DNA of 60,328 nucleotides from a virus (Duplodnaviria > Caudoviricetes), in IMG/VR virus record IMGVR_UViG_3300042399_000237, positions 1-60,328 of that record; one strand, given 5' to 3'. The translations under genes and the position numbers were made by a program. Numbering within the stretch: position 1 is the stretch's first letter; each line of letters opens with the position of its first letter. Positions 17,964 to 47,253 of this stretch are shown here, piece after piece. The notes under the pieces were generated by a model. It was not told the DNA's origin. It ran no database searches and saw nothing but the letters and a program-made list of their open reading frames with translations.

Positions 17964-18348
17964 GATTTATCTTCCTATTTTTTGACTGGTGGATAAAGTC
18001 TTTAACTTCGTCTGTAGACGGAGGGTCATACATTGGCATTTTCTGCTTTGCCAGTTCTAATAAATATTTATTTGTCCTTCTTAGCTTCTGTTGTCTGCGT
18101 AACCATTTTGCTGGGTCTTCTAGGAATCTTTTTATTCCATAAAGATGCCACAATAGATATCCTCTGACCGTCCCTATGTCCAAGAGGTCTTTTGGTTCTA
18201 GAGATATTTTTACCCACTTAGTAATACGCTGCCTTCTTTGGAATAAACATTTTATCTTCCTCATCTGAGGAGAGATGAATAAAGCCGCCTCGTCTAAATC
18301 TGAGCAATGCTTGGGTGGTTGAATCAACCAAGTCATCATGGTCCCCAT
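17953..18348 (-). CDS. Hypothetical protein between TerL and portal (start uncertain)
   Basis: The 3' part fills the 255-nt gap; the annotated start overlaps TerL by 131 nt and is probably too far upstream. Confidence 0.4.
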   Translation of the reverse strand: MGTMMTWLIQPPKHCSDLDEAALFISPQMRKIKCLFQRRQRITKWVKISLEPKDLLDIGTVRGYLLWHLYGIKRFLEDPAKWLRRQQKLRRTNKYLLELAKQKMPMYDPPSTDEVKDFIHQSKNRKINHGD

Positions 18349-20617
18349 TAGGAAAGGAAGCCACCTCCTCTACCAATTCATCTGCCCATCTTGTATCTGG
18401 TCGCCATACCATTCCTGATGCAAATAGATCTGACACTGCGTTTACACGCGCTATCTTATCTGACCCTTTCCCCGGTGTATATTCCGAAACAGGCAGACCT
18501 GCCTTTCTCAGCTCATATATTAACGGCGCACCCGCTGCTTTCTTCTCCACCAAGAGGGTGTCAGGGTTCCATTCCTTCCATAGATCATAGGCTGTACGCT
18601 TGAGTTCTGGGAACTCCATACGCTCTTTAAACGCATCAAGCACGATAATATTAGCTTGTTCAATTCCGTCTATTTCCCTATAGAAGACTCCCCATGTTGT
18701 ACATGCGGAATAATCTGCCCTGTTGGTTTTCTCGAATGCGGTATCCCAAGACTGGATAATGTAGTCAACCTCTGGGGGTTTCTCTCTATCCCAGATCTTC
18801 CACATCTCCCGCTTGATGATAGCCCCACCCTCTGAGGTGGGGTTCTGCTGGTACTGCGCTTCCCACTTAGCTACTGGGAGTTCTGCCTTGATAGCCTCTA
18901 GTTCTGTTTGCTTCCAGAACTCAGCCCACAAGGGCTTGCCGCTAGGAAGAAGAGCGGGTAGCTCTATAACCTCCCAGTCTTCCAAGTCTCTCTTGATGGC
19001 ATTGTTAAGGATCTGACCTGTTAAGTCTCTTTTGCTCCATCTAGTATTATGGCTAACAACCCCATTTGCAATGAAATTCTCAGTCCTATCTACCTCAACA
19101 TCAAAAACTTCTTCTTCTCCAGAAGGCGTTATGCTGGTTATCTTATCCAGAATGACGCTGTAGGTATTCAGCGGCTCGTTGTAATTTTTCTGGTGTTTTG
19201 CCATATCCAACGGCAAGGTTGCAGTCATTGCAGAGCAATCCTCTGACAACTCCGGTGGCATGGTTATGGTCGATACATAACTTCCCGTTCCAATGCGCCC
19301 TTGTATTTTTTGTAGAAGGCAGCTCCCCGCAGACATCGCACAGGTTGCCGCGCTCCGCAACCATGCGGTCATACTCCTCGCTGGTAATTCCGTACCTATG
19401 TTTAATACGCCGCGCTCTGCTTTTCTCTGGGGTTGGCTTTTCTGGAGGGTACTGCTTTGAATAGCAGTAACCACATAATCCTTTGGCTTTAGCAGGGTGG
19501 GAATTGCAGTGCCAGCAGTCTTTCCCTTTCCATTTCCCATGATGCCCGATTGGACGGTACGGGGCTTCCGGGTTTTTCTTATGGTAACTTCTTCTTGCTT
19601 GGCAAGCAGAGCAGAGTCCGGGTATTGTTTGAGATCTGGCGGTTCTGTTGCAGCCTTCGTTGCTACAAGCAACATATTCGGCTTTAGGTCTTTCAGTTGA
19701 ATCCATTTGCGCCCTCCAGAAAAATCAACAAGAAACGGATGCCTCGCGTTTGCTTGAAGTATTCTGCCAGATTGCGTCTTTACTGTATATATGGAATCAA
19801 TACCACTTGACTGCCAATTGTTTATCTTGGCTGTGGTAAGTACCCCATATTCATAGGTTGCCACCAAATCACCAATACAAATATCCCGTAATGGCTTTTC
19901 TGTCCCATCAGACATAAGCACACGGGTGCTTCCAACCATACACATAACTATAACAATGGCTCCTCCCGGCTGCAGACGCTGTCTAGGACCGGATGAATAC
20001 CACTCGAATACCCGATCATACACCTGCGGGGTTCCTTGCATCGCTTCCTGTTCTGAATGAGGGTCATCGATGATAAGGACATCTGCCCCTTTACCTGTTA
20101 CCGCACCCCCAACCCCAATAGCAAAATAATCCCCGCCTTTGTTTGTATTCCAGCGACCGGCTGCCTTGCTGTCCGACTGAAGCTTGGTCGAGAAGACTTC
20201 TTGATAATCAGCAGACCCTACCAAGTTTCTGACCTTCCGACCAAACCCTACGGCAAGTTCTGCGGTATGGGCTGTTTGGATAATCTTCTTTTCTGGGTAT
20301 AAGCCCAGAAACCAAGAAGGGAATAGAAAGGAAGCAAACTCTGACTTTGTATGACGAGGCGGCATGTTGATGATCAGCCGCTTAAGTTCTCCTCTTGCGA
20401 CTCTCTCAAAGGCATCTGCCATGATCTGATGATGCTTGCCGGGGATGAATGCTCCCCACATCTGACGGACAAAGGGCAGGAAGTTCTGCCTGCATCGTTC
20501 TTTCTTATCTGCCTTGAATAGCTGATCTATCTTCTCTATGTCCGGGGAACCAGCAGGCAGGGTATCAAGGATACTCAGGTAACCAGTGATCTCTTCTCTG
20601 GTCAGGAGGTCGCTCAT
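18218..20617 (-). CDS. terL: Terminase large subunit with intein
   Basis: Walker A-like INMPPRHTKS; Walker B LIIDDPH; nuclease motifs QSWDTA, EKKAAG, HDDLVDS; start set at MSDLL. Confidence 0.95.
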   Translation of the reverse strand: MSDLLTREEITGYLSILDTLPAGSPDIEKIDQLFKADKKERCRQNFLPFVRQMWGAFIPGKHHQIMADAFERVARGELKRLIINMPPRHTKSEFASFLFPSWFLGLYPEKKIIQTAHTAELAVGFGRKVRNLVGSADYQEVFSTKLQSDSKAAGRWNTNKGGDYFAIGVGGAVTGKGADVLIIDDPHSEQEAMQGTPQVYDRVFEWYSSGPRQRLQPGGAIVIVMCMVGSTRVLMSDGTEKPLRDICIGDLVATYEYGVLTTAKINNWQSSGIDSIYTVKTQSGRILQANARHPFLVDFSGGRKWIQLKDLKPNMLLVATKAATEPPDLKQYPDSALLAKQEEVTIRKTRKPRTVQSGIMGNGKGKTAGTAIPTLLKPKDYVVTAIQSSTLQKSQPQRKAERGVLNIGTELPARSMTAWLRSAATCAMSAGSCLLQKIQGRIGTGSYVSTITMPPELSEDCSAMTATLPLDMAKHQKNYNEPLNTYSVILDKITSITPSGEEEVFDVEVDRTENFIANGVVSHNTRWSKRDLTGQILNNAIKRDLEDWEVIELPALLPSGKPLWAEFWKQTELEAIKAELPVAKWEAQYQQNPTSEGGAIIKREMWKIWDREKPPEVDYIIQSWDTAFEKTNRADYSACTTWGVFYREIDGIEQANIIVLDAFKERMEFPELKRTAYDLWKEWNPDTLLVEKKAAGAPLIYELRKAGLPVSEYTPGKGSDKIARVNAVSDLFASGMVWRPDTRWADELVEEVASFPNGDHDDLVDSTTQALLRFRRGGFIHLSSDEEDKMFIPKKAAYY
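19046..19942 (-). mobile_element. Intein (299 aa) in TerL
   Basis: Begins CMVGSTRVLMSDG (block A); block B ANARHPFLV; block F VFDVEVDRTENFIANG; ends SHN followed by T(+1). Removal restores IVIVM-TRW. Confidence 0.95.
19143..19706 (-). CDS. Endonuclease VII-family homing endonuclease nested out of frame in the intein
   Basis: YGITSEEYDRMVAERGNLCDVC...LCIDHNHATGVVRGLLCNDCNLAVG; N-terminal Cys-rich repeats; own SD GGAGG 6 nt before the ATG. Confidence 0.9.
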   Translation of the reverse strand: MDSTERPKAEYVACSNEGCNRTARSQTIPGLCSACQARRSYHKKNPEAPYRPIGHHGKWKGKDCWHCNSHPAKAKGLCGYCYSKQYPPEKPTPEKSRARRIKHRYGITSEEYDRMVAERGNLCDVCGELPSTKNTRAHWNGKLCIDHNHATGVVRGLLCNDCNLAVGYGKTPEKLQRAAEYLQRHSG

Positions 20618-20630
20618 GTTCCACACTCTT

Positions 20631-20858
20631 TCATATCGACAACATCTCATCCAATGATGGGGCTATTCGGATTGTCCTGAACTTATGGGGCTTCATGTTA
20701 ATTCGCCCCTCTTGCTCTAGGATGTGGATATGTCTGTGGATATTTGACCTAGACTTCAGTCCCAGACCAGATGCGATATCCTGCAGGGATGGAGCAAAGC
20801 CCTTGGTCTTTATAAAGGACTGGACGAACTCTAGAATCTCTAGCTGCTTGTTTGTCAT
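20631..20858 (-). CDS. LexA-like DNA-binding domain protein (no peptidase domain)
   Basis: MTNKQLEILEFV...GFAPSLQDIASGLGLKSRSNIHRHIHILEQEGRI matches the LexA N-terminal winged helix; 75 aa only. Confidence 0.85.
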   Translation of the reverse strand: MTNKQLEILEFVQSFIKTKGFAPSLQDIASGLGLKSRSNIHRHIHILEQEGRINMKPHKFRTIRIAPSLDEMLSI

Positions 20859-24456: not shown

Positions 24457-25896
24457 ATGAAAGACTTAAAAGCTAAACTAGCATTACTGTCACTGGGTCA
24501 ACTCAATGCAGCACAAGAGGAGGCTGGTGTTCTGCCAATTGCTGACAAGACAGGCGCACTGCACTCTGTGACTGAGTTGCTAGTGCATGGCAGGCTCGAA
24601 CTCGATCAGGTGCTGAAGATCAGGGCATCCGTAGCCAAACCCGTTGGGGCTGTTGTAGATGATGCTCTGCGCCAACAGGTGAACGCTATCAGTGCGACCG
24701 CTCAGGGTGCAGCTACTCAGGTCGAGTCGGCTCTTGCAGTGATAGGCAGAACGAGTGCGGATGTTGGCACGGCTCTTGCCCAGTTACGCACAGACTTTTC
24801 CAAGCTTTCGAGCAAGCTTGAGACCCGTGTCGCAGCAATCAGCAAGCCGGACGAGGCTCATATTCAAGCGTCCTTGGCGAACCTGTTTGATCAGTTCCGT
24901 ACTGAAGTGACCCCAGAGAAGCTGACTCAAGTGGCGAATGCCGTGGGGGCATTCAAGCTAACAAGGGCAGGCGATATCTTCCCGGTCACTGCTTACGGTG
25001 ACGTGGACTTCGGTGACCTTCTGGTAGGGGTCTGGGGCGATCCACAAGCCCCCCAGTTGGTCGATGACTATGTGTTCAACCCATCGCACCTACACCAGAG
25101 TCTAATCGCTCTGGACGATGTCCTCCCAGACAATGTCTGGTTGGCTGGTGAGCGTGGTACTGGCAAGACTGAGTTCGTGACCCAGTTAGCGGCTCGTTTA
25201 AAGCGGAGGCTTTTCCGGGTCAATTTTGACGAGGCTTTGGAACGTGCCGACTTCATTGGCGGTAACACGATTGAGAACTCTTCTGTGGTATGGAAGGCGG
25301 GGATAATAACCCAAGCCATTCAGCATCCCGGCAGCATCATCTTGCTAGATGAGATCGGGTTTGCGAGAGCGCAGTCGGTGTCGATTCTGCACAGTCTATG
25401 TGAGCGCAGTCCTCATCGTGCCATTGCCATTGCAGAGACAGGCGAAAGGATTCCAGTCGCAAGCCATGTAGTGTTCTTCGGTGCTGATAACAGTAACGGA
25501 CACGGCGATACGTCTGGCAATTTTGCTGGGGTGCGTGAACAGAATAGCGCCTTCCTTGACCGCTTCAGCTTCACTCTGCGCTTCGAGTACCTGTCTGCGG
25601 CTGATGAATGTAATTTAATTATCAACCGTACGGCTCTGCCTTTGGATGCCGCGATTGCCATCGTCCAGTTTGCGGGTGTAGCGCGTGAGAAAGCAAGGGC
25701 AGGGCTGTTGACTCAGCCTCCGTCACTGCGCCAACTATTTGCATGGGCAAGGGCTGTTAAGAAGGGCTTGCCTGTTGAGCAGGCTTTCGTGAACGCCATC
25801 ATCAACAAGTTTCCGGCTGACTGCGAGCCTGAGTTGCGTGGGGTATTCAATGCTCAGATCGATATCGTAGCGTTTAAACAATCACTGGGAGGTTAA
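24457..25896 (+). CDS. MoxR/CobS-like AAA+ ATPase
   Basis: Walker A GERGTGKT; Walker B ILLDE; NSAFLDRF; SLRQL sensor. Confidence 0.9.
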   Translation: MKDLKAKLALLSLGQLNAAQEEAGVLPIADKTGALHSVTELLVHGRLELDQVLKIRASVAKPVGAVVDDALRQQVNAISATAQGAATQVESALAVIGRTSADVGTALAQLRTDFSKLSSKLETRVAAISKPDEAHIQASLANLFDQFRTEVTPEKLTQVANAVGAFKLTRAGDIFPVTAYGDVDFGDLLVGVWGDPQAPQLVDDYVFNPSHLHQSLIALDDVLPDNVWLAGERGTGKTEFVTQLAARLKRRLFRVNFDEALERADFIGGNTIENSSVVWKAGIITQAIQHPGSIILLDEIGFARAQSVSILHSLCERSPHRAIAIAETGERIPVASHVVFFGADNSNGHGDTSGNFAGVREQNSAFLDRFSFTLRFEYLSAADECNLIINRTALPLDAAIAIVQFAGVAREKARAGLLTQPPSLRQLFAWARAVKKGLPVEQAFVNAIINKFPADCEPELRGVFNAQIDIVAFKQSLGG

Positions 25897-38950: not shown

Positions 38951-39074
38951 GAAAGAAGACATGCTGCCGAAGTACGGATTCACCGGACGGAGAATAGGAT
39001 CTCAGTGCGCGGAATGTAAGAAAAAAGAAGAGGCAAGAAGGAAGCAGGAGCGGCTTAGTCGAGCGCCTTCTTAA
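38913..39074 (+). CDS. Small Zn-finger protein (53 aa)
   Basis: MLKFCMRCQK...QCAECKKK; overlaps the stop of the convergent giant gene. Confidence 0.55.
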   Translation: MLKFCMRCQKMFEKEDMLPKYGFTGRRIGSQCAECKKKEEARRKQERLSRAPS

Positions 39075-42000
39075 CGAATTGTATATTCTTCGTTACGTTT
39101 ATTTCTGCGTCTTTAATATTAGACTCTATCTCAGCAAGATTGTCTGGGTCCATCTTAGACCGTCTTGCTTCTCTTCTGAAGGTTCTTAGGCTACTCATCT
39201 CTTCATTTAAACCATTCATGTAGTCCTTGATCCCCAGCAGCTTGCCGCCTCTGCCAGCTTGGAATACAGCAAGCTCATCGTAGTCACCCTGTCTCTCTAG
39301 GAAGTTAACAGTCTTCACCGCAGTATCCACTTCCTTCTTCAGTTCGTAGTAGGCGTTGATTGTTCCTGAACCCTGCTTGGTGGTCATGAAGCGTTTAAAC
39401 ACAGGCATCTGCTCTAGCTTCTTGGTCGCCTTAACGTCATCACCCTCGCCACGCATGGCGGCATCTAGCATCATGACTGCGTATGTTCCAATTGTTCCAG
39501 TGTATCCGCGAATCAGGTTATCTATTTTCAGAGGAGACTGATTTGTTTCTTTGCCTACCAACTGAGCCAGCAGGGATGTGCTTGGGTTAGCTTGGTAAGG
39601 CGTGTAAACATCCTCCATGCCCTTCCCGACAATCGGCTGACCTGTAAAGAACGAGTAGTTAGCTATGTTCTCAACGATAGGCATAGCAACATGAGGGATT
39701 GGATTCATTACCAGCGTAGAGCTTAGGTTCCTAGCGATGGACTGTCTTAGGTCTGCCCCTGTATCCATACCCCAGACATGTTGATAGATGCGCTCAGGGA
39801 ACACTTTAAACAACACACCCAATTCAAATGGGATTGGTATTCTTCCTAAGCCGCCCAGTATCCAGTAGTTATCTCTCTCTTCTGGGGTGGCATTCTTGTA
39901 TTCTTCTGTGTCTGCGGCTAAGGCAAGATACATGGCTGTTAAGCCAAGTATCGTTAGGGATCTAGTCGCAAACAGTTTCTTCTGTTGTTCGTTGTTGCGG
40001 GTGGCTGACCGACCAAAGCCCGTCCGGTACAGAACATCCATACCCTGTATACGAGCGTTCATGAATGGCACAAGAGCCGTTACGATTCTAATGAGGGCTG
40101 AGTTACCCTTGCGGCTGAAGTTCATGATCTCTAGCGCTTGATAGGTTGCCTCTGCCTCGTTTCCCGTCTCCTCCAGAACCCTCTTGTAGACCTCTGAGCG
40201 AGTCGCTAGGTCGGAGATGTGCGCTCCCTTGTCCAGAATATCCATTATCTTAGAGATGGGCATGAGAGCCTTCTCTGCGGCTGTCTGAGTACCTGTACGC
40301 TTACGGAGTTCTTTCTCTACAGCAGCGGCTGAAGACTTGGTGTCCCCTGCGAAGTCATATCCTGTGAAGTACCCAGATCTAGCCAAAGCTGCAGCTTCTG
40401 GGTTAGACCCAAGCATAGCTTTCCCTGCCTGTTTAAATGTATCAAACAGCGGAGTCATGTTTACACCGGACGTTACCCAAGCTTGCATCGAGTCTCTAGC
40501 CAAGTTAGCCAGCATGAAGCCGGGGTCTTTGGTCACCATGTCTCTCAGGAAGTTGGCTGGCTTTGCTAATATTTCAACAAAGGGTAGATGAGGAGCATCT
40601 AGACCTTTGAGGGCTTCATAGACCAGACTGTCGTCCACCTTGTAGAACTTGGTAACGCCTGCTTGTTTAATAGATACGATGTCGTATCCCTTGGTTGCAG
40701 GTGGGACTTCAGAGGCTTGGTTTAAACGCTGCAGATCTCTGATGGTACGTTGTCCTGCTACGTTCTTCATACCAGCCTCAATAGCCGCACGAGAATTCCG
40801 TATCACTGTTTCCATGAAGTCGGCTAATGGAGCCTCCCCACCCTTCAACTCTTTGGGTTTCTTAACGCCTGAGATAGAGCTGAATATAGCTGGAGCGTTT
40901 ATACGGTCTCCATCCATCTGGCGATAGAAGGGAATGTAGTCCCAGTTCTTCGTCCAGAGTTCTGCTTCTTTAGCGGAGATAACTCCAGTGTCCTTCATGA
41001 ACTGGACCAGACCATTGTTGTACTGCTGGTACTCAGCGAAGACTTGTTTAAACTCTGGGTGCATCTTCTCCAGAATCTTGCCGCGTTCTATGTCTTCCTT
41101 GGTGAAGTTCTGTTCACGGGTTGAGGTGATGGTCTTGCCATCTTTCCCTACCCTTGTTTCATACATGAGCCTGCTGCCTCGGCGTGTGCCAGCATAGAAC
41201 TGGAACCGCTGGAACATGTGTGCGCCGCCTTTCATTATCGGCTCTAGGATTGGGATCAAGCCCCTGACAGTGCTGTTCTCAGGAACTGAAGCGAACCCAT
41301 TCTTATATACAGGTGGACCGTTAACAAAGGAGGAGGCAGCTATGCCTGCGGCTCGGTCAGCAAATACAACTGCTGCTATCGCAGAGCGATCAGCATGGTA
41401 TTCCTGTTCTCCAAACTGAAGAGCGGACTCTCTGGTGAGATTAGAAATGGAGTCAGCGCCATGAATGAATGCCTGTCTAAACGCAGTGAAGGATCTTGGA
41501 GAGAATGCCGCTGCTATCCTGTCAGACCAGCCTTCATTCTTTCTGGCGGTAGTGGTGCGGTTAATAGCCGCAGTCATGTCTGGGCTTAGGTCGGCATTAG
41601 CCTCATCGAATCTGCCTTGTGGTTTTGTTTGGGCAGAGGTGGCTCTAATGGAATACTTGACATCATCATTGCTGCGAGAGAATGCCCCGGTATTTCCTAC
41701 AGCAGACTTAACTTGGTTAGGGCTGTATACAGCGAGGTTCTTATTGCCACCCTCCGCTACATAATACGAATCAAACCCAGCGCCTTTGATAGCCTTCTGT
41801 ATATCTGGGTTTTCTAGGGTATCCCAAGCCCCCTTTTTAAGCGCACCTAAATATTGCGCTTGCATACTTCTTGCTACTGGTCCATCTTGATTGGTATATC
41901 TTTTAGATATTATCGGCTTGAGAATTTCAATGTGAGCAGGGTTTTCGTAATCGAAGGTTTTCTCAGCCCTTACATATAAGGGCATGATGTTCTCGCCAGA

Positions 42001-45000
42001 ATTGAGCCTGTCTAGGACAAATTCTTTTGTAGCTTCATTAAGCTTATCTTCCAGACTCGATCCGGCGCGATGACTGTCTCTTATCTTTTGAAGGATAACT
42101 TTAAGATCTGCTTGATGCTCTGAGCTTAACAGTTCATCTGAATGCTCAGATATCGAGTCAGCCGATAGAGCAGAAAAATGTGCCGCAAAATCAGGGTCGG
42201 GCGATAAGAAGATTGAATTAGCCTGCTTGGGTTTAAACGTGCCTATGTCACGAGCCGTGCCGTGATACCAGAACTTCGGAGACCCAATGATTTCATCATC
42301 GCTAACTCCCCGATACATCCAGTCGGGGACAACGAAATCGTCATGGTTTACTTGCTTGGAGTCACCGAACCATTGTTTAAACTCTGGGGTTTTTGTTTGG
42401 CGGAGAGAGAACCTTGGCTCTTTGCCTTCGGACCTAACCGCTTCTCTGGCAGAAGACTTGAAGGATTCACGGACATCGTCCAGCCTTCTGAGTATATTGG
42501 ATCGTCCGGCTTCGCTAGTTTGAAGCCCTTTGATAAGATCTTCTCCAGCAGGCTGCTCTGTCCAGTCATGATATGGGTACTCCGATTCTGCGCCAAACAC
42601 TGAAGTGTCTTCTAGTTCGGCAATCTCGTTAATCTTAGTTTCAAACCGCTTTGCAATATCTGCAAACTCTTCAGCAGACTCAACAAATGCATCTGATCCA
42701 GTGTAGTTTATCAGAACCAATTCATTGGCACGGGTCTTTGTATATCCAGCCAATGGACCAAGCTCTTCTTGAAGAGCTTTAAACATCTTTCTTTCTTGCG
42801 TCAGGGTTAGCTCTTTGCGTTTAAATCTAAACCGATATCCTAGCTGCGCTTTGTCAGCCAGAGCTGGGTCTGCTCGGAAGAATGGAACTGCATCTTGTTT
42901 AAATGCATAGGTCATTGCTTGCGACAAGTCCATTGCATCTTGCTTGGCTATCACTGGGTCATCATGATGAACATGAACAATTAGATTAGGGGTGATGCCT
43001 CCAGCATATCCTCCGCTCCCAACTGATACCCTAACCTTGCTTTTAAGGTTAAGCGCCCGAGCCATTCCTTGAATAGCGCCTGAGTCTAGAATGATCTTGT
43101 TTAAATCTTCTTTAGCCTTCAGCTTTAATTCTGCGACCTGTCCCATCTCAGAAGATACGGATGGTATGACTTCTCCGGTTATGACATGAGTCTCTGCTCT
43201 AGTTTCTGCGGATGGTTTCTGTAGCTTTGTTGTTACAGGTAGAGGTGTTGTGCGCTTACCCAGTAGATGAGAGTAATCTACGATTGCCATCTCCATTGCG
43301 TACTCACGCAACTGAGCATCACTCAGAGCCTTCTTGTAACCCTTCGCACGATAACGCTCAAATATTGTCTTAGCCTTTTGTGTTATCCAAGAGGCAGCTT
43401 GAACTTGTCTAGCTGGCAGATTTCGTTTGCTTGCAACCAACCTAACCAAGTTCTCAGCCAATTCATACTGAGCGTCTGTAGGGGTGTCGCGGTCAAACAG
43501 CATCCGTGTCATGTGGAGGTCAATGGTAGAGCGACCGCTGTCCTTCCCTTCCATTGCATCCATGAAGTTCGAGTAGAAGGTATTTGTCTTACGACCATCC
43601 CAGTCAATACCAAAATTCAGTAGATCGCTAACAGCTTTATTCTCTCTTCCTGTGCCAACCTTAATCTCAGCGCCACGGGCAAACTGCTCCCATGCTTTAG
43701 ATGCTTTGGTGAAGTTAGCAGCAACCTCTGTATTGGCTGAGGTGATTGAAATGATTTGGAAGAACTTCTCAGCAAGAACCTTGTCTCCATTGAAGGCATT
43801 CAAGATGGCTTTAGCCGAATCTTCGTACCATTCCTTTCCTTTAATTCCTTCGTTAGTGTATTGCTGTAACTTCTTAACAGCCGTTCTAACGTCCTCTAGA
43901 GTCTTTCCAGACTCCATCCCTGCAATCCTCTCGCCAACTCTCTTGACCAATCTCTCAAGCTCACTAGCGTAGATACGAGCTTGCTTCTCAGGCAGCGGTG
44001 GTCCTTCTCTCAGAGAGAACTTGCCTTGATCTTTAGCCTCGTCATAGAGAGTCTGCTCTGTACCCAGCCCTCCTGAAATTTTCATCTGACGTTCTTTGTC
44101 ATTGCCTGTGTATTCTTTAAGGGCTTTATTAAAGCGTCTAAACGCTCTTGCTGCCTCACCCTCAGAGCGCCCTTGACTCATCGACCTATCTTTATTAGCC
44201 TTTTCTTCTGCCGCTCTATGCTTTAAGAAAAGATCGGCAACCTTGGCTCCTTCTGGGGTCTTATTAAGCTCATTGTATGTCTCCCCTTTGGGAGCTTCTC
44301 TCAGAGAGAACGCGCCGTATTTAGGCTCCATAGAGGTTGGCTCTCTGGTGGCGGGTAAGCGACCAGCCTCCACCTTGCTAAAGATACTATCGGCTGTATG
44401 GAACCCAATCCCGTCAAGGCTGTTGCCTAACGCTTCCATGAAGGACTTGATCTTGTTAAACACAGCGCCGATAAGACCTGCTGGAGGCTTGGTCTGATCA
44501 AAGTCAGAGAATGCGTCAGCAATCGCTTCTTCGATCAATGCCTCTGGGCTGAGGTTTAAACCCTGATACCTTTCAATGATATTGTATTTGCTGATCCACT
44601 CAGACTTGGCTTTGTTCTCTAGGACCCTCCACTGGTCTTTAGAGAAAGCACCCAACTCTTTAAGGGCATGGACACCCTCATGCCTTAGAACCCTCATTGG
44701 TTTCTCGGCATCTATAGCAATCTTTATTAGCTTCTTGGAATACTCGCCGTCTGCCGTAGATTCGTTGCTCGCTCTGATTGCGTTAACGATGTTTAAATGC
44801 AGATCACCCAAGCCAAGGCGAGTCATCATCGGACGAAGCTTTCTGTCTAACTCTGCTGCCTGTTCTTTGAAGCGTCCAGTAAACATACCGGCACTTAACA
44901 ACCTTTCTTCTGCCTTTTTGTTACCGACCATATGAGGCTCGCGTATACCCTCTACAGAGCCGTATCTAGCCTTCAGCTCATCCTGAGCCATGACACTCAA

Positions 45001-47253
45001 CTCAGCGGCTAGGTCGCCCTTCTGGTTAGGCGCAGCGGCTATTATCTGACGCAGGGTATCGTCAGGCAGTTTAGACACAGCATGCGCTTGCGCCTCTTCT
45101 CTACTATCAAATGTTCCGGCTGCCTCGTTGTTGTCATACAGAGTGTAGTCAGACTTGGTGGTGATCTTCTCGCCTCTAGGCTCAATCGTCAGAGGCTCTG
45201 CCAAATTCTCAGCGGCTGCGTTTAAACTCTCTATCTTAGCGAGCTTTGCTTGGTTCTTGCTTTCTAAGCCTGCAGCCTTGGTCTGATACTCAATGGTATT
45301 GGTCAGTCCCTGAGCAGCCATTGTGTCTAGCTCGGTCTGGCTCTGGGCAATCTGGTCCCCTAGTTTAGCCGCCTCTCTGGTGCTTCTAACTGCAAGACCC
45401 TGCCGCGCAGCGGAAAGGGTATCTATTCTTGACTTAGCCTTGTCCTCAGTTGCATGTTCTTCTAGGTCACCCTGCGATGTCTTAATTACATAAGACTCAG
45501 GCACAGAATCAGATGCGTATGTGTTCTCTCTAACGTCAGGACCGCCAGCTACCTTGTTGGCGTTTGGAACATGCACATTGATATTAGTCGTCCCGTCTGG
45601 GTTGGGGTATGACTTTGCGTACAGGTCGCCCCGACCGGCTGCGGTATGCAGTAATGACTCTGCATCCACATCGTTCTTCAATCCAGTGTAGCCCTTGATC
45701 TTATCGATAGTGTCCGCTAACGAGAGAGCGTTGTCTTCTGTATGGTCAGCGTTTAAATTATTAATCGCTACATCGTATTGCTCTTCCGAGAAGCGAGTGG
45801 CGCTTGTGCCTGCCAGATTCAAAGGAGTCTTCGAGATAGGTAATGCACTGACAGCTTTGATAGCAGAGAACAGTTGAGGCGGACTCATACCGTTTAAATC
45901 ATCTGTGCCTGTGGACCTACGAAGGAAATCTCTGAATCCTTGCGAGTCAGTATCTACATTCTTCTGTCCGGCGATGTTTAAAACGGTTGCTATGTGCTGA
46001 GGAGCGTTAGCTACATCTGTATCGCTAGGGACAAACCCCATCTTCTCTGCAATTAGATTGCTGATTTCTTGCTGAGGCATACCGGCATCAGACAGATCTT
46101 CTACAGAGAACGACTTCAGTAGAGGCTTACCTGCTTCTGCCCTTGTTTTGTTAATGAACGCCAGATGATCTGCGTTTAAACCGCTTGACTGAGTTGTAGT
46201 CCCGTCATCAGCAACGGTCTGCTTCTGGGCTGAGAAGTTTCCTAACGGATTGTAGATAGGATGCTTGTCTTGTGCAGCCGCCATCTTCTCTTTAGGACGT
46301 GAAGCAGCGTCTGCATCAGCGGTATCCTTAGCCGCTTGCATAGCCTTATCTATCTCTTCCTTATCCTTCTTGGCTAGGCTTGCTTGGTAGTCTCTGCGGA
46401 TGTCCTTCCTGAGAATTAGATCCAGACCTACCTGAGCTACCCCACCTACCCCAGCACCCATTGCCCCCTCTTTAAGGGCTGATCCACCGATCTCTTGGTC
46501 AGGATTGTATATCTGTTGAGCTATAACATCTTGTAAGGCTCCTGAGCCTGCTTCCTGTACGCCTTCTACAGCACCTTGCTGCAGCGCTCTCTTGCCATAA
46601 GCAAGCGGAGTTAGATCGGATGCTTTAGACAGACCCTTAGTGGCTCTGAATAGATTCTGTATTGGGAGGAGTTCTGTTAGTCCAGCAGGAACACCAGCGA
46701 CTAACGATCCAAACTCTTGACCGGGGGTAACTGTTAGACCTTCAGCACGAGCGGTCTCTACTCGCTGACGGGCTTCTTCTGCTCCCAGACCGGCTGTTTG
46801 AGCGACTGCTACAGGAGCTGCTGCGCGAGGAGCAACTCCCTTTATTACTGTCCCAAGACCTTTTAGCCCAGCTTGCGGACCAAGCATTGATCCGAATGAG
46901 CCTAAGCCATGTGCAAACTGAGACCCAAGACCTTCATCGGTCGGGGCTAATGATTGCTCTGTTTCTGTGATTGATTTGCCAAAGCCCGTCTCTGCAAACG
47001 GAGTCATCTCTGGATTGAAATAACGAGCAGCGGCGTATGGGAGAGAGCTTAACCCCCCTACAGCTTGGACCAGACCAGACCCAACTCCCCTTGCAATATT
47101 CCTTGGAGCGTTTAAAGCCTGACCTAAAGCTGTGGGTGGAGGTGGGAATGCTTCTGGATAGGCGCGTTTTGCAACCTCTAGAGCCTTGGCTCTAGGGACA
47201 TCATCATGGATTCTCCCACGAGACCCGTCTGGCAGATCTATTTCATATGCCAT
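39055..47253 (-). CDS. Large polyvalent (putative ejected) protein, 2732 aa
   Basis: Zincin HEGVH...EEAIAD; central WY...SAN...K..TF..N...TIDLHM...QVQAASW domain; ART-PolyVal-like TPEFKQWFGDSK...YHGT...PNQVKS; C-terminal LPD38-like RIPIPFELG...NYSFFTGQPI. Confidence 0.85.
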   Translation of the reverse strand: MAYEIDLPDGSRGRIHDDVPRAKALEVAKRAYPEAFPPPPTALGQALNAPRNIARGVGSGLVQAVGGLSSLPYAAARYFNPEMTPFAETGFGKSITETEQSLAPTDEGLGSQFAHGLGSFGSMLGPQAGLKGLGTVIKGVAPRAAAPVAVAQTAGLGAEEARQRVETARAEGLTVTPGQEFGSLVAGVPAGLTELLPIQNLFRATKGLSKASDLTPLAYGKRALQQGAVEGVQEAGSGALQDVIAQQIYNPDQEIGGSALKEGAMGAGVGGVAQVGLDLILRKDIRRDYQASLAKKDKEEIDKAMQAAKDTADADAASRPKEKMAAAQDKHPIYNPLGNFSAQKQTVADDGTTTQSSGLNADHLAFINKTRAEAGKPLLKSFSVEDLSDAGMPQQEISNLIAEKMGFVPSDTDVANAPQHIATVLNIAGQKNVDTDSQGFRDFLRRSTGTDDLNGMSPPQLFSAIKAVSALPISKTPLNLAGTSATRFSEEQYDVAINNLNADHTEDNALSLADTIDKIKGYTGLKNDVDAESLLHTAAGRGDLYAKSYPNPDGTTNINVHVPNANKVAGGPDVRENTYASDSVPESYVIKTSQGDLEEHATEDKAKSRIDTLSAARQGLAVRSTREAAKLGDQIAQSQTELDTMAAQGLTNTIEYQTKAAGLESKNQAKLAKIESLNAAAENLAEPLTIEPRGEKITTKSDYTLYDNNEAAGTFDSREEAQAHAVSKLPDDTLRQIIAAAPNQKGDLAAELSVMAQDELKARYGSVEGIREPHMVGNKKAEERLLSAGMFTGRFKEQAAELDRKLRPMMTRLGLGDLHLNIVNAIRASNESTADGEYSKKLIKIAIDAEKPMRVLRHEGVHALKELGAFSKDQWRVLENKAKSEWISKYNIIERYQGLNLSPEALIEEAIADAFSDFDQTKPPAGLIGAVFNKIKSFMEALGNSLDGIGFHTADSIFSKVEAGRLPATREPTSMEPKYGAFSLREAPKGETYNELNKTPEGAKVADLFLKHRAAEEKANKDRSMSQGRSEGEAARAFRRFNKALKEYTGNDKERQMKISGGLGTEQTLYDEAKDQGKFSLREGPPLPEKQARIYASELERLVKRVGERIAGMESGKTLEDVRTAVKKLQQYTNEGIKGKEWYEDSAKAILNAFNGDKVLAEKFFQIISITSANTEVAANFTKASKAWEQFARGAEIKVGTGRENKAVSDLLNFGIDWDGRKTNTFYSNFMDAMEGKDSGRSTIDLHMTRMLFDRDTPTDAQYELAENLVRLVASKRNLPARQVQAASWITQKAKTIFERYRAKGYKKALSDAQLREYAMEMAIVDYSHLLGKRTTPLPVTTKLQKPSAETRAETHVITGEVIPSVSSEMGQVAELKLKAKEDLNKIILDSGAIQGMARALNLKSKVRVSVGSGGYAGGITPNLIVHVHHDDPVIAKQDAMDLSQAMTYAFKQDAVPFFRADPALADKAQLGYRFRFKRKELTLTQERKMFKALQEELGPLAGYTKTRANELVLINYTGSDAFVESAEEFADIAKRFETKINEIAELEDTSVFGAESEYPYHDWTEQPAGEDLIKGLQTSEAGRSNILRRLDDVRESFKSSAREAVRSEGKEPRFSLRQTKTPEFKQWFGDSKQVNHDDFVVPDWMYRGVSDDEIIGSPKFWYHGTARDIGTFKPKQANSIFLSPDPDFAAHFSALSADSISEHSDELLSSEHQADLKVILQKIRDSHRAGSSLEDKLNEATKEFVLDRLNSGENIMPLYVRAEKTFDYENPAHIEILKPIISKRYTNQDGPVARSMQAQYLGALKKGAWDTLENPDIQKAIKGAGFDSYYVAEGGNKNLAVYSPNQVKSAVGNTGAFSRSNDDVKYSIRATSAQTKPQGRFDEANADLSPDMTAAINRTTTARKNEGWSDRIAAAFSPRSFTAFRQAFIHGADSISNLTRESALQFGEQEYHADRSAIAAVVFADRAAGIAASSFVNGPPVYKNGFASVPENSTVRGLIPILEPIMKGGAHMFQRFQFYAGTRRGSRLMYETRVGKDGKTITSTREQNFTKEDIERGKILEKMHPEFKQVFAEYQQYNNGLVQFMKDTGVISAKEAELWTKNWDYIPFYRQMDGDRINAPAIFSSISGVKKPKELKGGEAPLADFMETVIRNSRAAIEAGMKNVAGQRTIRDLQRLNQASEVPPATKGYDIVSIKQAGVTKFYKVDDSLVYEALKGLDAPHLPFVEILAKPANFLRDMVTKDPGFMLANLARDSMQAWVTSGVNMTPLFDTFKQAGKAMLGSNPEAAALARSGYFTGYDFAGDTKSSAAAVEKELRKRTGTQTAAEKALMPISKIMDILDKGAHISDLATRSEVYKRVLEETGNEAEATYQALEIMNFSRKGNSALIRIVTALVPFMNARIQGMDVLYRTGFGRSATRNNEQQKKLFATRSLTILGLTAMYLALAADTEEYKNATPEERDNYWILGGLGRIPIPFELGVLFKVFPERIYQHVWGMDTGADLRQSIARNLSSTLVMNPIPHVAMPIVENIANYSFFTGQPIVGKGMEDVYTPYQANPSTSLLAQLVGKETNQSPLKIDNLIRGYTGTIGTYAVMMLDAAMRGEGDDVKATKKLEQMPVFKRFMTTKQGSGTINAYYELKKEVDTAVKTVNFLERQGDYDELAVFQAGRGGKLLGIKDYMNGLNEEMSSLRTFRREARRSKMDPDNLAEIESNIKDAEINVTKNIQFVKKALD

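Follow-up and report, generated by a model that had tools for sequence, protein, structure and literature searches.

How does an intein whose own reading frame holds no nuclease come to contain a complete nuclease gene in another frame, and what would that gene do there? The locus that raises this question is terL, the large terminase gene, in IMG/VR record IMGVR_UViG_3300042399_000237, a lake-water contig of the Caudoviricetes. The window, as we call the whole stretch of DNA analysed, takes in all 60,328 bp of the viral contig, whose completeness is estimated at 98%. Our answer, which we hold with considerable confidence, is that the locus is a composite selfish element: a mini-intein and a separately translated homing-type nuclease gene, lodged together in the C-motif of a Terminase_6-type TerL. 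A first-pass annotation made from the letters alone had proposed a mini-intein with a shadow-frame middle section and a separate nuclease, and this proposal is upheld by four kinds of evidence: the different selection acting on the two frames, a linker predicted to be disordered (pLDDT, the predicted score in the local distance difference test, below 35), the start signals of the nuclease, and a distribution like that of a mobile element.

An intein in TerL and the gene within it

The features on which the argument draws are the following:

18218-20650, minus strand: terL, an open reading frame (ORF) for the large terminase precursor, 810 amino acids including the intein (phrog_38, E 1.7e-100; Pfam Terminase_6C, E 9.6e-10)
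19943-20650, minus strand: N-extein, the ATPase part through the conserved ...IVIVM before the insertion point; junction kept in 64 unique homologues
19046-19942, minus strand: class-1 intein, 299 amino acids, TerL residues 237-535, from Cys1 to His-Asn with Thr at +1 (Pfam Intein_splicing, PF14890, 56.1 bits, cut-off 35.8)
19649-19942, minus strand: N-terminal splicing domain, intein residues 1-98, beta-rich; its last ~20 codons overlap the first nuclease codons
19713-19717, minus strand: GGAGG, a Shine-Dalgarno-like motif, followed by GCGCAA (6 nt) and the nuclease ATG at 19704-19706
19143-19706, minus strand: endonuclease VII-type (His-Me finger) gene, 187 amino acids and a TGA stop, at offset 2 relative to terL and beginning 944 nt into it
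19464-19667, minus strand: two Cys4 knuckles (C14, C19, C32, C35 and C64, C67, C78, C81), both in the nuclease's N-terminal half; all eight Cys invariant (39/39)
19158-19412, minus strand: endonuclease VII catalytic domain, nuclease residues 99-183, with a zinc site of C123, C126, C159 and C162, and D146, H147, H149 and N163
19178-19648, minus strand: shadow linker, intein residues 99-255 in the TerL frame, stop-free and otherwise unconstrained
19046-19177, minus strand: C-terminal splicing domain, intein residues 256-299, blocks F and G, ending ...FIANGVVSHN; pLDDT 90-96, pN/pS 0.12 (ratio of non-synonymous to synonymous differences), junction conserved
18218-19045, minus strand: C-extein, beginning TRWSKRDL, the terminase nuclease domain (Pfam Terminase_6C over residues 634-783)

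The intein stands, as the first-pass annotation had placed it, directly before TRW: it opens with CMVGSTRVL, closes with VVSHN and is followed in TerL by TRW. Residue invariance was scored across 39 aligned sequences for the intein and the nuclease alike; C1, H68, H298 and N299 of the intein are invariant in all of them, and the Thr at +1 (TRW) is kept in the junctions of the 64 unique sequences. The AlphaFold2 model of the intein, built on the 39-sequence alignment, reaches pLDDT 90-96 at residues 1-90 and more than 90 at about residues 260-299; residues 99-255 between them have pLDDT 27-34 and no secondary structure. A Foldseek search with the folded lobes recovers the mini-inteins Ssp DnaB, Npu DnaB and Mtu RecA (E 7e-9 to 7e-7; target-normalised TM-score 0.77-0.89). 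The in-frame middle had been read as devoid of nuclease motifs, and the Pfam search of the in-frame intein agrees, with splicing-domain matches and no nuclease family; an in-frame PF02945 is likewise absent from all 120 intein-bearing TerL relatives listed. Splicing in the host is presumed, on the indirect evidence that TerL is an essential protein and that the homologous Chandler gp6 intein spliced in a reporter.

The shifted frame encodes what had been predicted for it, a complete endonuclease VII-type protein. The ORF matches Pfam Endonuclease_7 (PF02945) over residues 99-183 (E 9.2e-19, 67.6 bits, cut-off 23.6) and the PHROG family 'endonuclease VII' (E 3.5e-30), and the CxxC, IDHNH and RGLLCxxCN motifs are present as CDVC, CIDHNH and RGLLCNDCN. 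All twelve Cys of the protein, together with D146, H147, H149 and N163, are invariant. In a profile alignment to T4 endonuclease VII, H149 corresponds to H43, N163 to N62 and C159/C162 to C58/C61, while T4 Glu65 is not conserved, Val166 standing in its place; profile searches retrieve Hpy99I (E 2.5e-4) and T4 endonuclease VII (E 5.2e-4). The two N-terminal Cys4 knuckles, to which no family corresponded in the Pfam search, presumably bind DNA. The AlphaFold2 model of the nuclease has a mean pLDDT of 76, and its disordered residues 1-18 are encoded by the same DNA as the final strands of the N-terminal splicing lobe.

The two frames are under different selection

A scan of IMG/VR with the nuclease protein yielded 309 related loci, and both frames were checked in the best 80 of these (61-98% identity). 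All 80 have an intact nuclease ORF (183-199 amino acids), which lies at offset 2 within an open host frame; that frame extends across the whole of the nuclease match and is about 800-1150 amino acids long in the 68 loci where it is complete. These 68 and the window make up an alignment set of 69 sequences, 64 of them unique (12 cut ORFs and 5 duplicates were left out). The TerL frame has no stop across the overlap in the window, where both frames had been described as open, and none in any of the 64 sequences.

Is such a layout likely to arise by chance? When the in-frame peptide was recoded with the codon usage of the window, 1 of 20000 draws kept the nuclease frame free of stops. The opposite recoding, of the nuclease protein, gave an open TerL frame 695 times in 20000 (mean 2.8 stops). 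A TerL frame without stops is thus fairly compatible with the nuclease sequence, and the converse does not hold. The single open draw, and a layout kept in 80 of 80 contigs, mean that the two-frame arrangement is not due to chance.

The pattern of substitution tells which frame is being maintained. Across the exteins of the 64 sequences, diversity at codon positions 1, 2 and 3 of the TerL frame is 0.30, 0.21 and 0.60; in the overlap the same pattern reappears in the nuclease frame (0.275, 0.205 and 0.529), so that the peak (0.53) falls on the second codon position of the TerL frame. The per-frame selection comparison that the first-pass annotation had called for was made by the Nei-Gojobori method on 400 sampled pairs, 389 of them usable. 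Within the overlap pN/pS is 0.30 for the nuclease frame and 1.18 for the TerL frame, and the nuclease frame has the lower value in 389 of 389 pairs. Elsewhere the TerL frame gives 0.32-0.33 in the exteins, 0.38 in the N-terminal splicing lobe and 0.12 in the C-terminal one. A sliding view locates the hand-over: the TerL frame dominates over nuclease residues 1-10 and the nuclease frame from residue 21 on. The nuclease frame is under purifying selection and the TerL frame of the overlap drifts. Stops or drift in the nuclease frame, the kind of evidence that would speak for decay, were looked for in the same loci, and the frame is intact in all 80.

We also looked for an indel artefact that might conceal an in-frame fusion. 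Logan contigs from three lake-water runs (2020, 2023 and 2024), among which the source sample may be, cover 18900-20100 with 0 differences and 0 gaps, which excludes an assembly indel. The same exact terL segment is present in 14 lake-water metagenome runs from 14 studies of 2020-2024; the phage genotype recurs across years, although the source sample may be among the 14. A megablast search of the phage collection with terL gave 0 matches, so the window has no close cultured relative in that collection.

Start signals of the nuclease

A Shine-Dalgarno motif of its own had been attributed to the nuclease, and the GGAGG, GCGCAA and ATG of the window agree with this. A GGAG, GAGG or AGGA core is found at -16 to -6 in 55 of 64 sequences. 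Beneath the motif, the TerL-frame Gly codon is GGA in 54 of 61 sequences and GGG in 6 of 61, with GGT and GGC absent; the extein Gly codons of the same sequences are GGT (34%), GGC (29%), GGG (23%) and GGA (14%). The nuclease ATG is composed, in 61 of 61, of an A-ending Lys, Glu or Arg codon and an invariant Trp codon, TGG. The GGAG motif and the ATG are therefore held at sites that are synonymous for TerL. In the window a stop in the nuclease frame lies six codons upstream of the ATG; 54 of the 80 loci have such a stop within 0-6 codons of Met1 on the upstream side, and in 14 of 80 it directly adjoins Met1. Taken together, the conserved start signals and the upstream stops favour independent initiation and disfavour a frameshift fusion, and the nuclease is probably translated as a protein of its own.

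Presence and absence among related phages

If the locus is a mobile element, related phages should differ in whether they have it. An IMG/VR scan with the N-extein listed 80 loci of 65-86% identity, a sample and not a frequency; among these matches the N- and C-exteins abut with a 0-nt gap in 79 of 80, and the empty sites read ...VM|TRW.... The one exception among them, L086, has an 897-nt insert with a nuclease match. The pair L061 (occupied) and L140 (empty) shows how precise the insertion is: around an insert of about 909 nt, identity is 99.6% in the 1063 nt upstream and 96.1% in the 2484 nt downstream.

Occupied and empty alleles are also scattered over the extein phylogeny. Presence of the intein was mapped on a FastTree extein tree built after removal of the intein columns; of its 137 rows, 65 are occupied and 72 empty, 7 further empties having been dropped for cut ORFs. 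The tree requires no fewer than 17 gains or losses of the intein, and well-supported branches force 14 of these; the mean for shuffled labels is 45, and 0 of 500 shuffles are as low. The identities of intein and extein diverge in both directions: L077 and L080 share 84-86% extein identity with the window and only 62% in the nuclease, and L012 and L017 share 54-65% in the exteins and 74-76% in the nuclease. In the approximately unbiased (AU) test, a clade supported at 95% in the nuclease tree is rejected by the extein data (36 of 64 rows; delta log-likelihood 758, p-AU 1e-46). The case for intein-extein incongruence rests on this test and on presence and absence, because the corresponding test on the nuclease data is non-significant. 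Presence and absence are precise and phylogenetically scattered, as for a mobile element.

A side observation concerns TerLs that are about 340 amino acids longer, namely L008, L020, L021, L047, L072 and L073 (host ORFs of about 1130-1150 amino acids) and P0008, P0014, P0050 and P0091. The longer intein-bearing TerLs listed have matches to the Pfam LAGLIDADG/Hom_end families PF14528, PF05204 and PF05203, which suggests that they hold a second, canonical intein at another site.

Hosts and copies in bacterial genomes

The window portal matched 18 phage records, including phages of Pelagibacter, Gammaproteobacteria, cyanobacteria, Roseobacter, Caulobacter and Alcaligenes, and 0 actinophages. The top seven TerL-extein matches are phages of Pelagibacter, Gammaproteobacteria and cyanobacteria and one phage of unknown host, every one with an intein-free TerL. 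Since the portal and TerL-extein matches are to non-actinophage phages, the host of the window is probably a diderm bacterium. The Gram-negative host stated in the first-pass annotation thus stands as a likelihood drawn from phage relatives, and not as an established fact about this contig. The G+C content is 0.43-0.52 across the intein, similar to that of its flanks; a recent import from high-GC actinophages was considered, and the intein, being close to the flanks in G+C content, bears no sign of it.

A scan of prokaryote genomes, one per species, recovered 24 nuclease loci. In 19 of these, matches to the two splicing lobes flank the nuclease, and 18 are nested at offset 2 in a spanning ORF. 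All 18 junctions read (L171, a near-duplicate of L170, being excluded) show ...|CM(T/V)G...N|T(R/W)W, and 17 of the 18 end in SHN. The carriers include isolate genomes of Bradyrhizobium tropiciagri, Oribacterium, Dysosmobacter and Mycolicibacterium vanbaalenii, and variously labelled metagenome-assembled genomes (MAGs). The Bradyrhizobium tropiciagri copy sits on a 948-kb contig and is hence an integrated prophage. Distant genome copies share 24-45% identity with the window in the exteins and 44-78% in the splicing lobes. The MAG labels (Caulobacteraceae, Chloroflexota, Saccharimonadales) were not used as evidence on the host of the window, since phage contigs are easily mis-binned.

Two copies are in states that differ from the rest. 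In L183:2559-3374, from an uncultured bacterium bin, the TerL frame is intact (1001 amino acids from stop to stop) and the nuclease frame is open for 70 amino acids only: here the nuclease has decayed and the intein persists. In L179:2647-3469, on a 911-kb contig of an alphaproteobacterial MAG, the TerL frame has five stops and the N-terminal splicing lobe is in frame with the nuclease; this is either a decayed prophage copy or the in-frame transition on which Gosselin, Arsenault and Gogarten speculate (bioRxiv 10.1101/2025.01.02.630785). In the rooted nuclease tree the two actinophage sequences branch outside the 64 environmental rows (support 87), with long branches, a long-branch warning and 64% support for the actinophage pair; this tree allows no direction of transfer.

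Proposed mechanism and alternatives

We propose that the element works as follows. TerL would be translated straight through the intein, whose splicing lobes (residues 1-98 and 256-299) would fold together across the disordered linker of about 157 residues; the intein would then be excised and ...VM joined to TRW..., restoring the terminase. Ribosomes would also initiate on the 187-amino-acid gene in the +2 frame of the linker, at the internal GGAGG-N6-ATG, and the product would be a nuclease of the His-Me finger (endonuclease VII) type that has two extra Cys4 knuckles. In a mixed infection the nuclease would most likely cut an intein-free terL near the VM/TRW codons, and repair from the occupied allele would copy intein and nuclease together. 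We infer that the nuclease protein is made and cleaves the empty terL allele, and, as to origin, that a free-standing gene invaded a mini-intein.

Several points weigh against this proposal. Endonuclease VII proper is a structure-specific resolvase, and the site specificity of the present protein is assumed. In Foldseek the nuclease model has Hpy99I and T4 endonuclease VII at the top with probability 0.97-0.99, but the matches are weak (E 2e-3 to 0.1, TM-score 0.26-0.32 over 79-131 columns) and cover the core only. The simple pN/pS estimate is biased in overlapping frames, though the phase switch in codon-position diversity is still unambiguous. The conserved GGA-G also codes for a conserved intein Gly, so only its synonymous third position informs on ribosome binding, and the start-signal counts come from related sequences, which are not independent trials. 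The N-extein scan is without the nearest kin of the window. An AU test on the 185-column nuclease alignment does not reject a clade of the window with its extein neighbours L077 and L080 (p 0.09), a group picked post hoc. Six metatranscriptome runs share at most 10% of sampled words with the window, and the one of these that was aligned to it covers 18900-19004 only, which is outside the intein and uninformative for expression.

Among the alternatives, the one that survives best, though we consider it improbable, is that the nuclease has no homing role but would work alongside the terminase or in recombination (as a packaging HNH protein or a T4 gp49-like resolvase), being useful to the phage and merely stored in the intein. 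HNH proteins assist terminases in HK97-like phages, the family matched here is that of recombination endonuclease VII, annotations of free-standing relatives in Gordonia phages read endonuclease VII or Holliday junction resolvase, and purifying selection on the gene would suit a helper as well. A helper would not be expected to be so bound to one site and so freely lost, however: 79 of the 80 TerL relatives among the N-extein matches listed do without the nuclease, the near-identical genomes L061 and L140 differ only by the insert, and 19 of 24 genome loci have the gene between splicing lobes at the same TerL site.

Less probable still is that the nuclease is made by programmed ribosomal frameshifting as a fusion with the N-terminal part of the intein, the whole being a canonical in-frame intein-endonuclease in disguise. 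The ORFs do overlap on the same strand, and the decayed copy L179 has its N-terminal splicing lobe in the nuclease frame; that copy, with 5 TerL-frame stops, looks dead, and the fusion is argued against by the nuclease-frame stops upstream of the ATG, by the conservation of ATG and GGAG, and by the end of the nuclease ORF before the C-terminal splicing lobe, so that a fusion could not splice. It is hardly credible that the second ORF should be a relic without function or the product of misassembly, an in-frame endonuclease domain shifted by indels and now drifting: decayed copies do exist (L183 in its nuclease frame, L179 in its TerL frame), but against this stand the intact ORF in 80 of 80 loci with its pN/pS of 0.30, the invariance of the twelve Cys and the catalytic D, H and N, the three identical and gap-free run assemblies, and an in-frame PF02945 in 0 of the 120 intein-bearing TerL relatives listed.

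Within the reading as a composite homing element, we lean towards the view that the overlapped state is one ancient and stable composite element, which has kept the same offset and the same C-motif target while moving among phages and prophages of several phyla: Proteobacteria, Firmicutes and Actinobacteria, and possibly Chloroflexota and others going by MAG labels. Constraint would then be divided between the two proteins, the disordered end of each lying over the folded part of the other.

Gene callers routinely mislabel an intein of this type as a mini-intein or a decaying intein, and annotators should check such cases for a nuclease. The hundreds of diverged two-frame copies show how a gene can be kept up in the alternative frame of a disordered linker that is spliced out, and this bears on the 'splicing first, endonuclease later' view of intein origin. 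Finally, this nuclease is a candidate for a site-specific enzyme directed at a conserved terminase motif.

Other genes of the window

The start of terL is ambiguous, with an ATG at 20650 and a second at 20617; homologues align from about residue 15 on, and the second ATG may be the true start. Directly upstream, a 75-amino-acid ORF (20631-20858, minus strand) overlaps the terL start by 20 nt; it matches a PHROG transcriptional repressor (phrog_362, 8e-10) and two families of unknown function, and sits where a small terminase subunit would be expected. The 2732-amino-acid ORF at 39055-47253 (minus strand), whose PHROG matches are all of unknown function, is by its size and neighbours probably a giant virion or ejection protein. 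A 479-amino-acid ORF at 24457-25896 (plus strand) matches the PHROG family 'porphyrin biosynthesis' (phrog_249, 1.1e-43) and ATPase families, and may be a CobS/AAA-type auxiliary gene.

Comparison with known systems

The closest precedent, to which the first-pass annotation had correctly pointed, is the out-of-frame terL intein nuclease of actinophages (10.1101/2025.01.02.630785), described in a preprint whose main text draws on a survey of PhagesDB alone. The best matches of our nuclease in the phage database lie inside terminase genes of the Gordonia phages Angelicage, Affeca, Sedona and Keitabear (57-58% identity) and of the cluster-B-type Mycobacterium phages Pipefish, Phlyer, Athena, Chandler and others (46% identity). 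The actinophage element resembles that of the window in four respects: the same TerL site, with junctions ...VM|CMTGDT...SHN|TRW in Angelicage and ...IQ|CMTGDT...SHN|TRW in Phlyer; a nuclease on the same strand, between the splicing blocks and at offset 2 from the annotated TerL coding sequence (Angelicage, Phlyer); an in-frame middle that is unstructured; and a TerL that aligns in one piece through the intein. It differs in that the window is a lake-water contig whose portal and TerL exteins are not actinophage-like, that the window nuclease has a second N-terminal Cys4 knuckle lacking in Angelicage and Phlyer, and that the window intein has 299 amino acids while that of Phlyer is annotated as 254.

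The insertion site has a name, TerL6-f, given for the putative ATPase coupling C-motif of the terminase_6-type TerL in cluster B3/B4 mycobacteriophages (Kelley 2016, PMC5050341). The Chandler gp6 intein, which spliced in an Escherichia coli reporter in that study, has the same C-motif insertion as the window, and Chandler gp6 is matched by both our nuclease and our TerL queries. In the parts of the study available, endonuclease activity was assayed for other TerL inteins only and tied to an in-frame domain, and an out-of-frame gene goes unmentioned.

The idea of an out-of-frame intein endonuclease is traced to Gorbalenya 1998 in a 2026 preprint on a cyanobacterial dnaX intein of this kind (10.64898/2026.09.14.751524), as far as its available text goes. 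There, as in the window, a mini-intein overlaps a conserved nuclease ORF, with purifying selection, sporadic spread and intein-extein incongruence; unlike the window, the host gene is cellular, and the terms 'endonuclease VII' and 'HNH' are absent from the available text, so that the nuclease family is apparently a different one. In the fractured genes of Dassa et al. (2009, PMC2677866), as described in the available parts, a free-standing nuclease gene likewise stands where an intein endonuclease domain would sit, between the halves of a split intein; the host gene there is in two ORFs joined by trans splicing, whereas the host frame of the window is open and splicing would be in cis. T4 endonuclease VII (gp49; PDB 1e7d, 1en7, 2qnf) and the restriction enzyme Hpy99I (3fc3) share with the window protein the His-Me finger core and a Cys4 zinc site. 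Unlike gp49, a free-standing junction resolvase of 157 amino acids, the window protein has about 98 additional N-terminal residues with two extra zinc knuckles and lies inside an intein.

A literature search (intein with endonuclease VII, out-of-frame, terminase, metagenome), which did not extend to supplementary tables, found the element unreported outside actinophages. The string 'metagenom' does not occur in the main text of the actinophage preprint (10.1101/2025.01.02.630785), and the passages of it consulted give no per-frame selection test; our evidence on selection, start signals and distribution goes beyond what those passages present. The layout itself has been known from actinophages since 2025, and the window is a member of it in a different phage lineage and a large environmental clade. 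What had been known from cultured actinophages thus extends to a large clade of environmental phages and to prophages of distant phyla, and this intein is likely one of the more widespread terminase inteins. New here are that large freshwater and environmental clade, the prophage copies in Proteobacteria, Firmicutes and other phyla, and the selection that acts on the nuclease frame and on its start signals.

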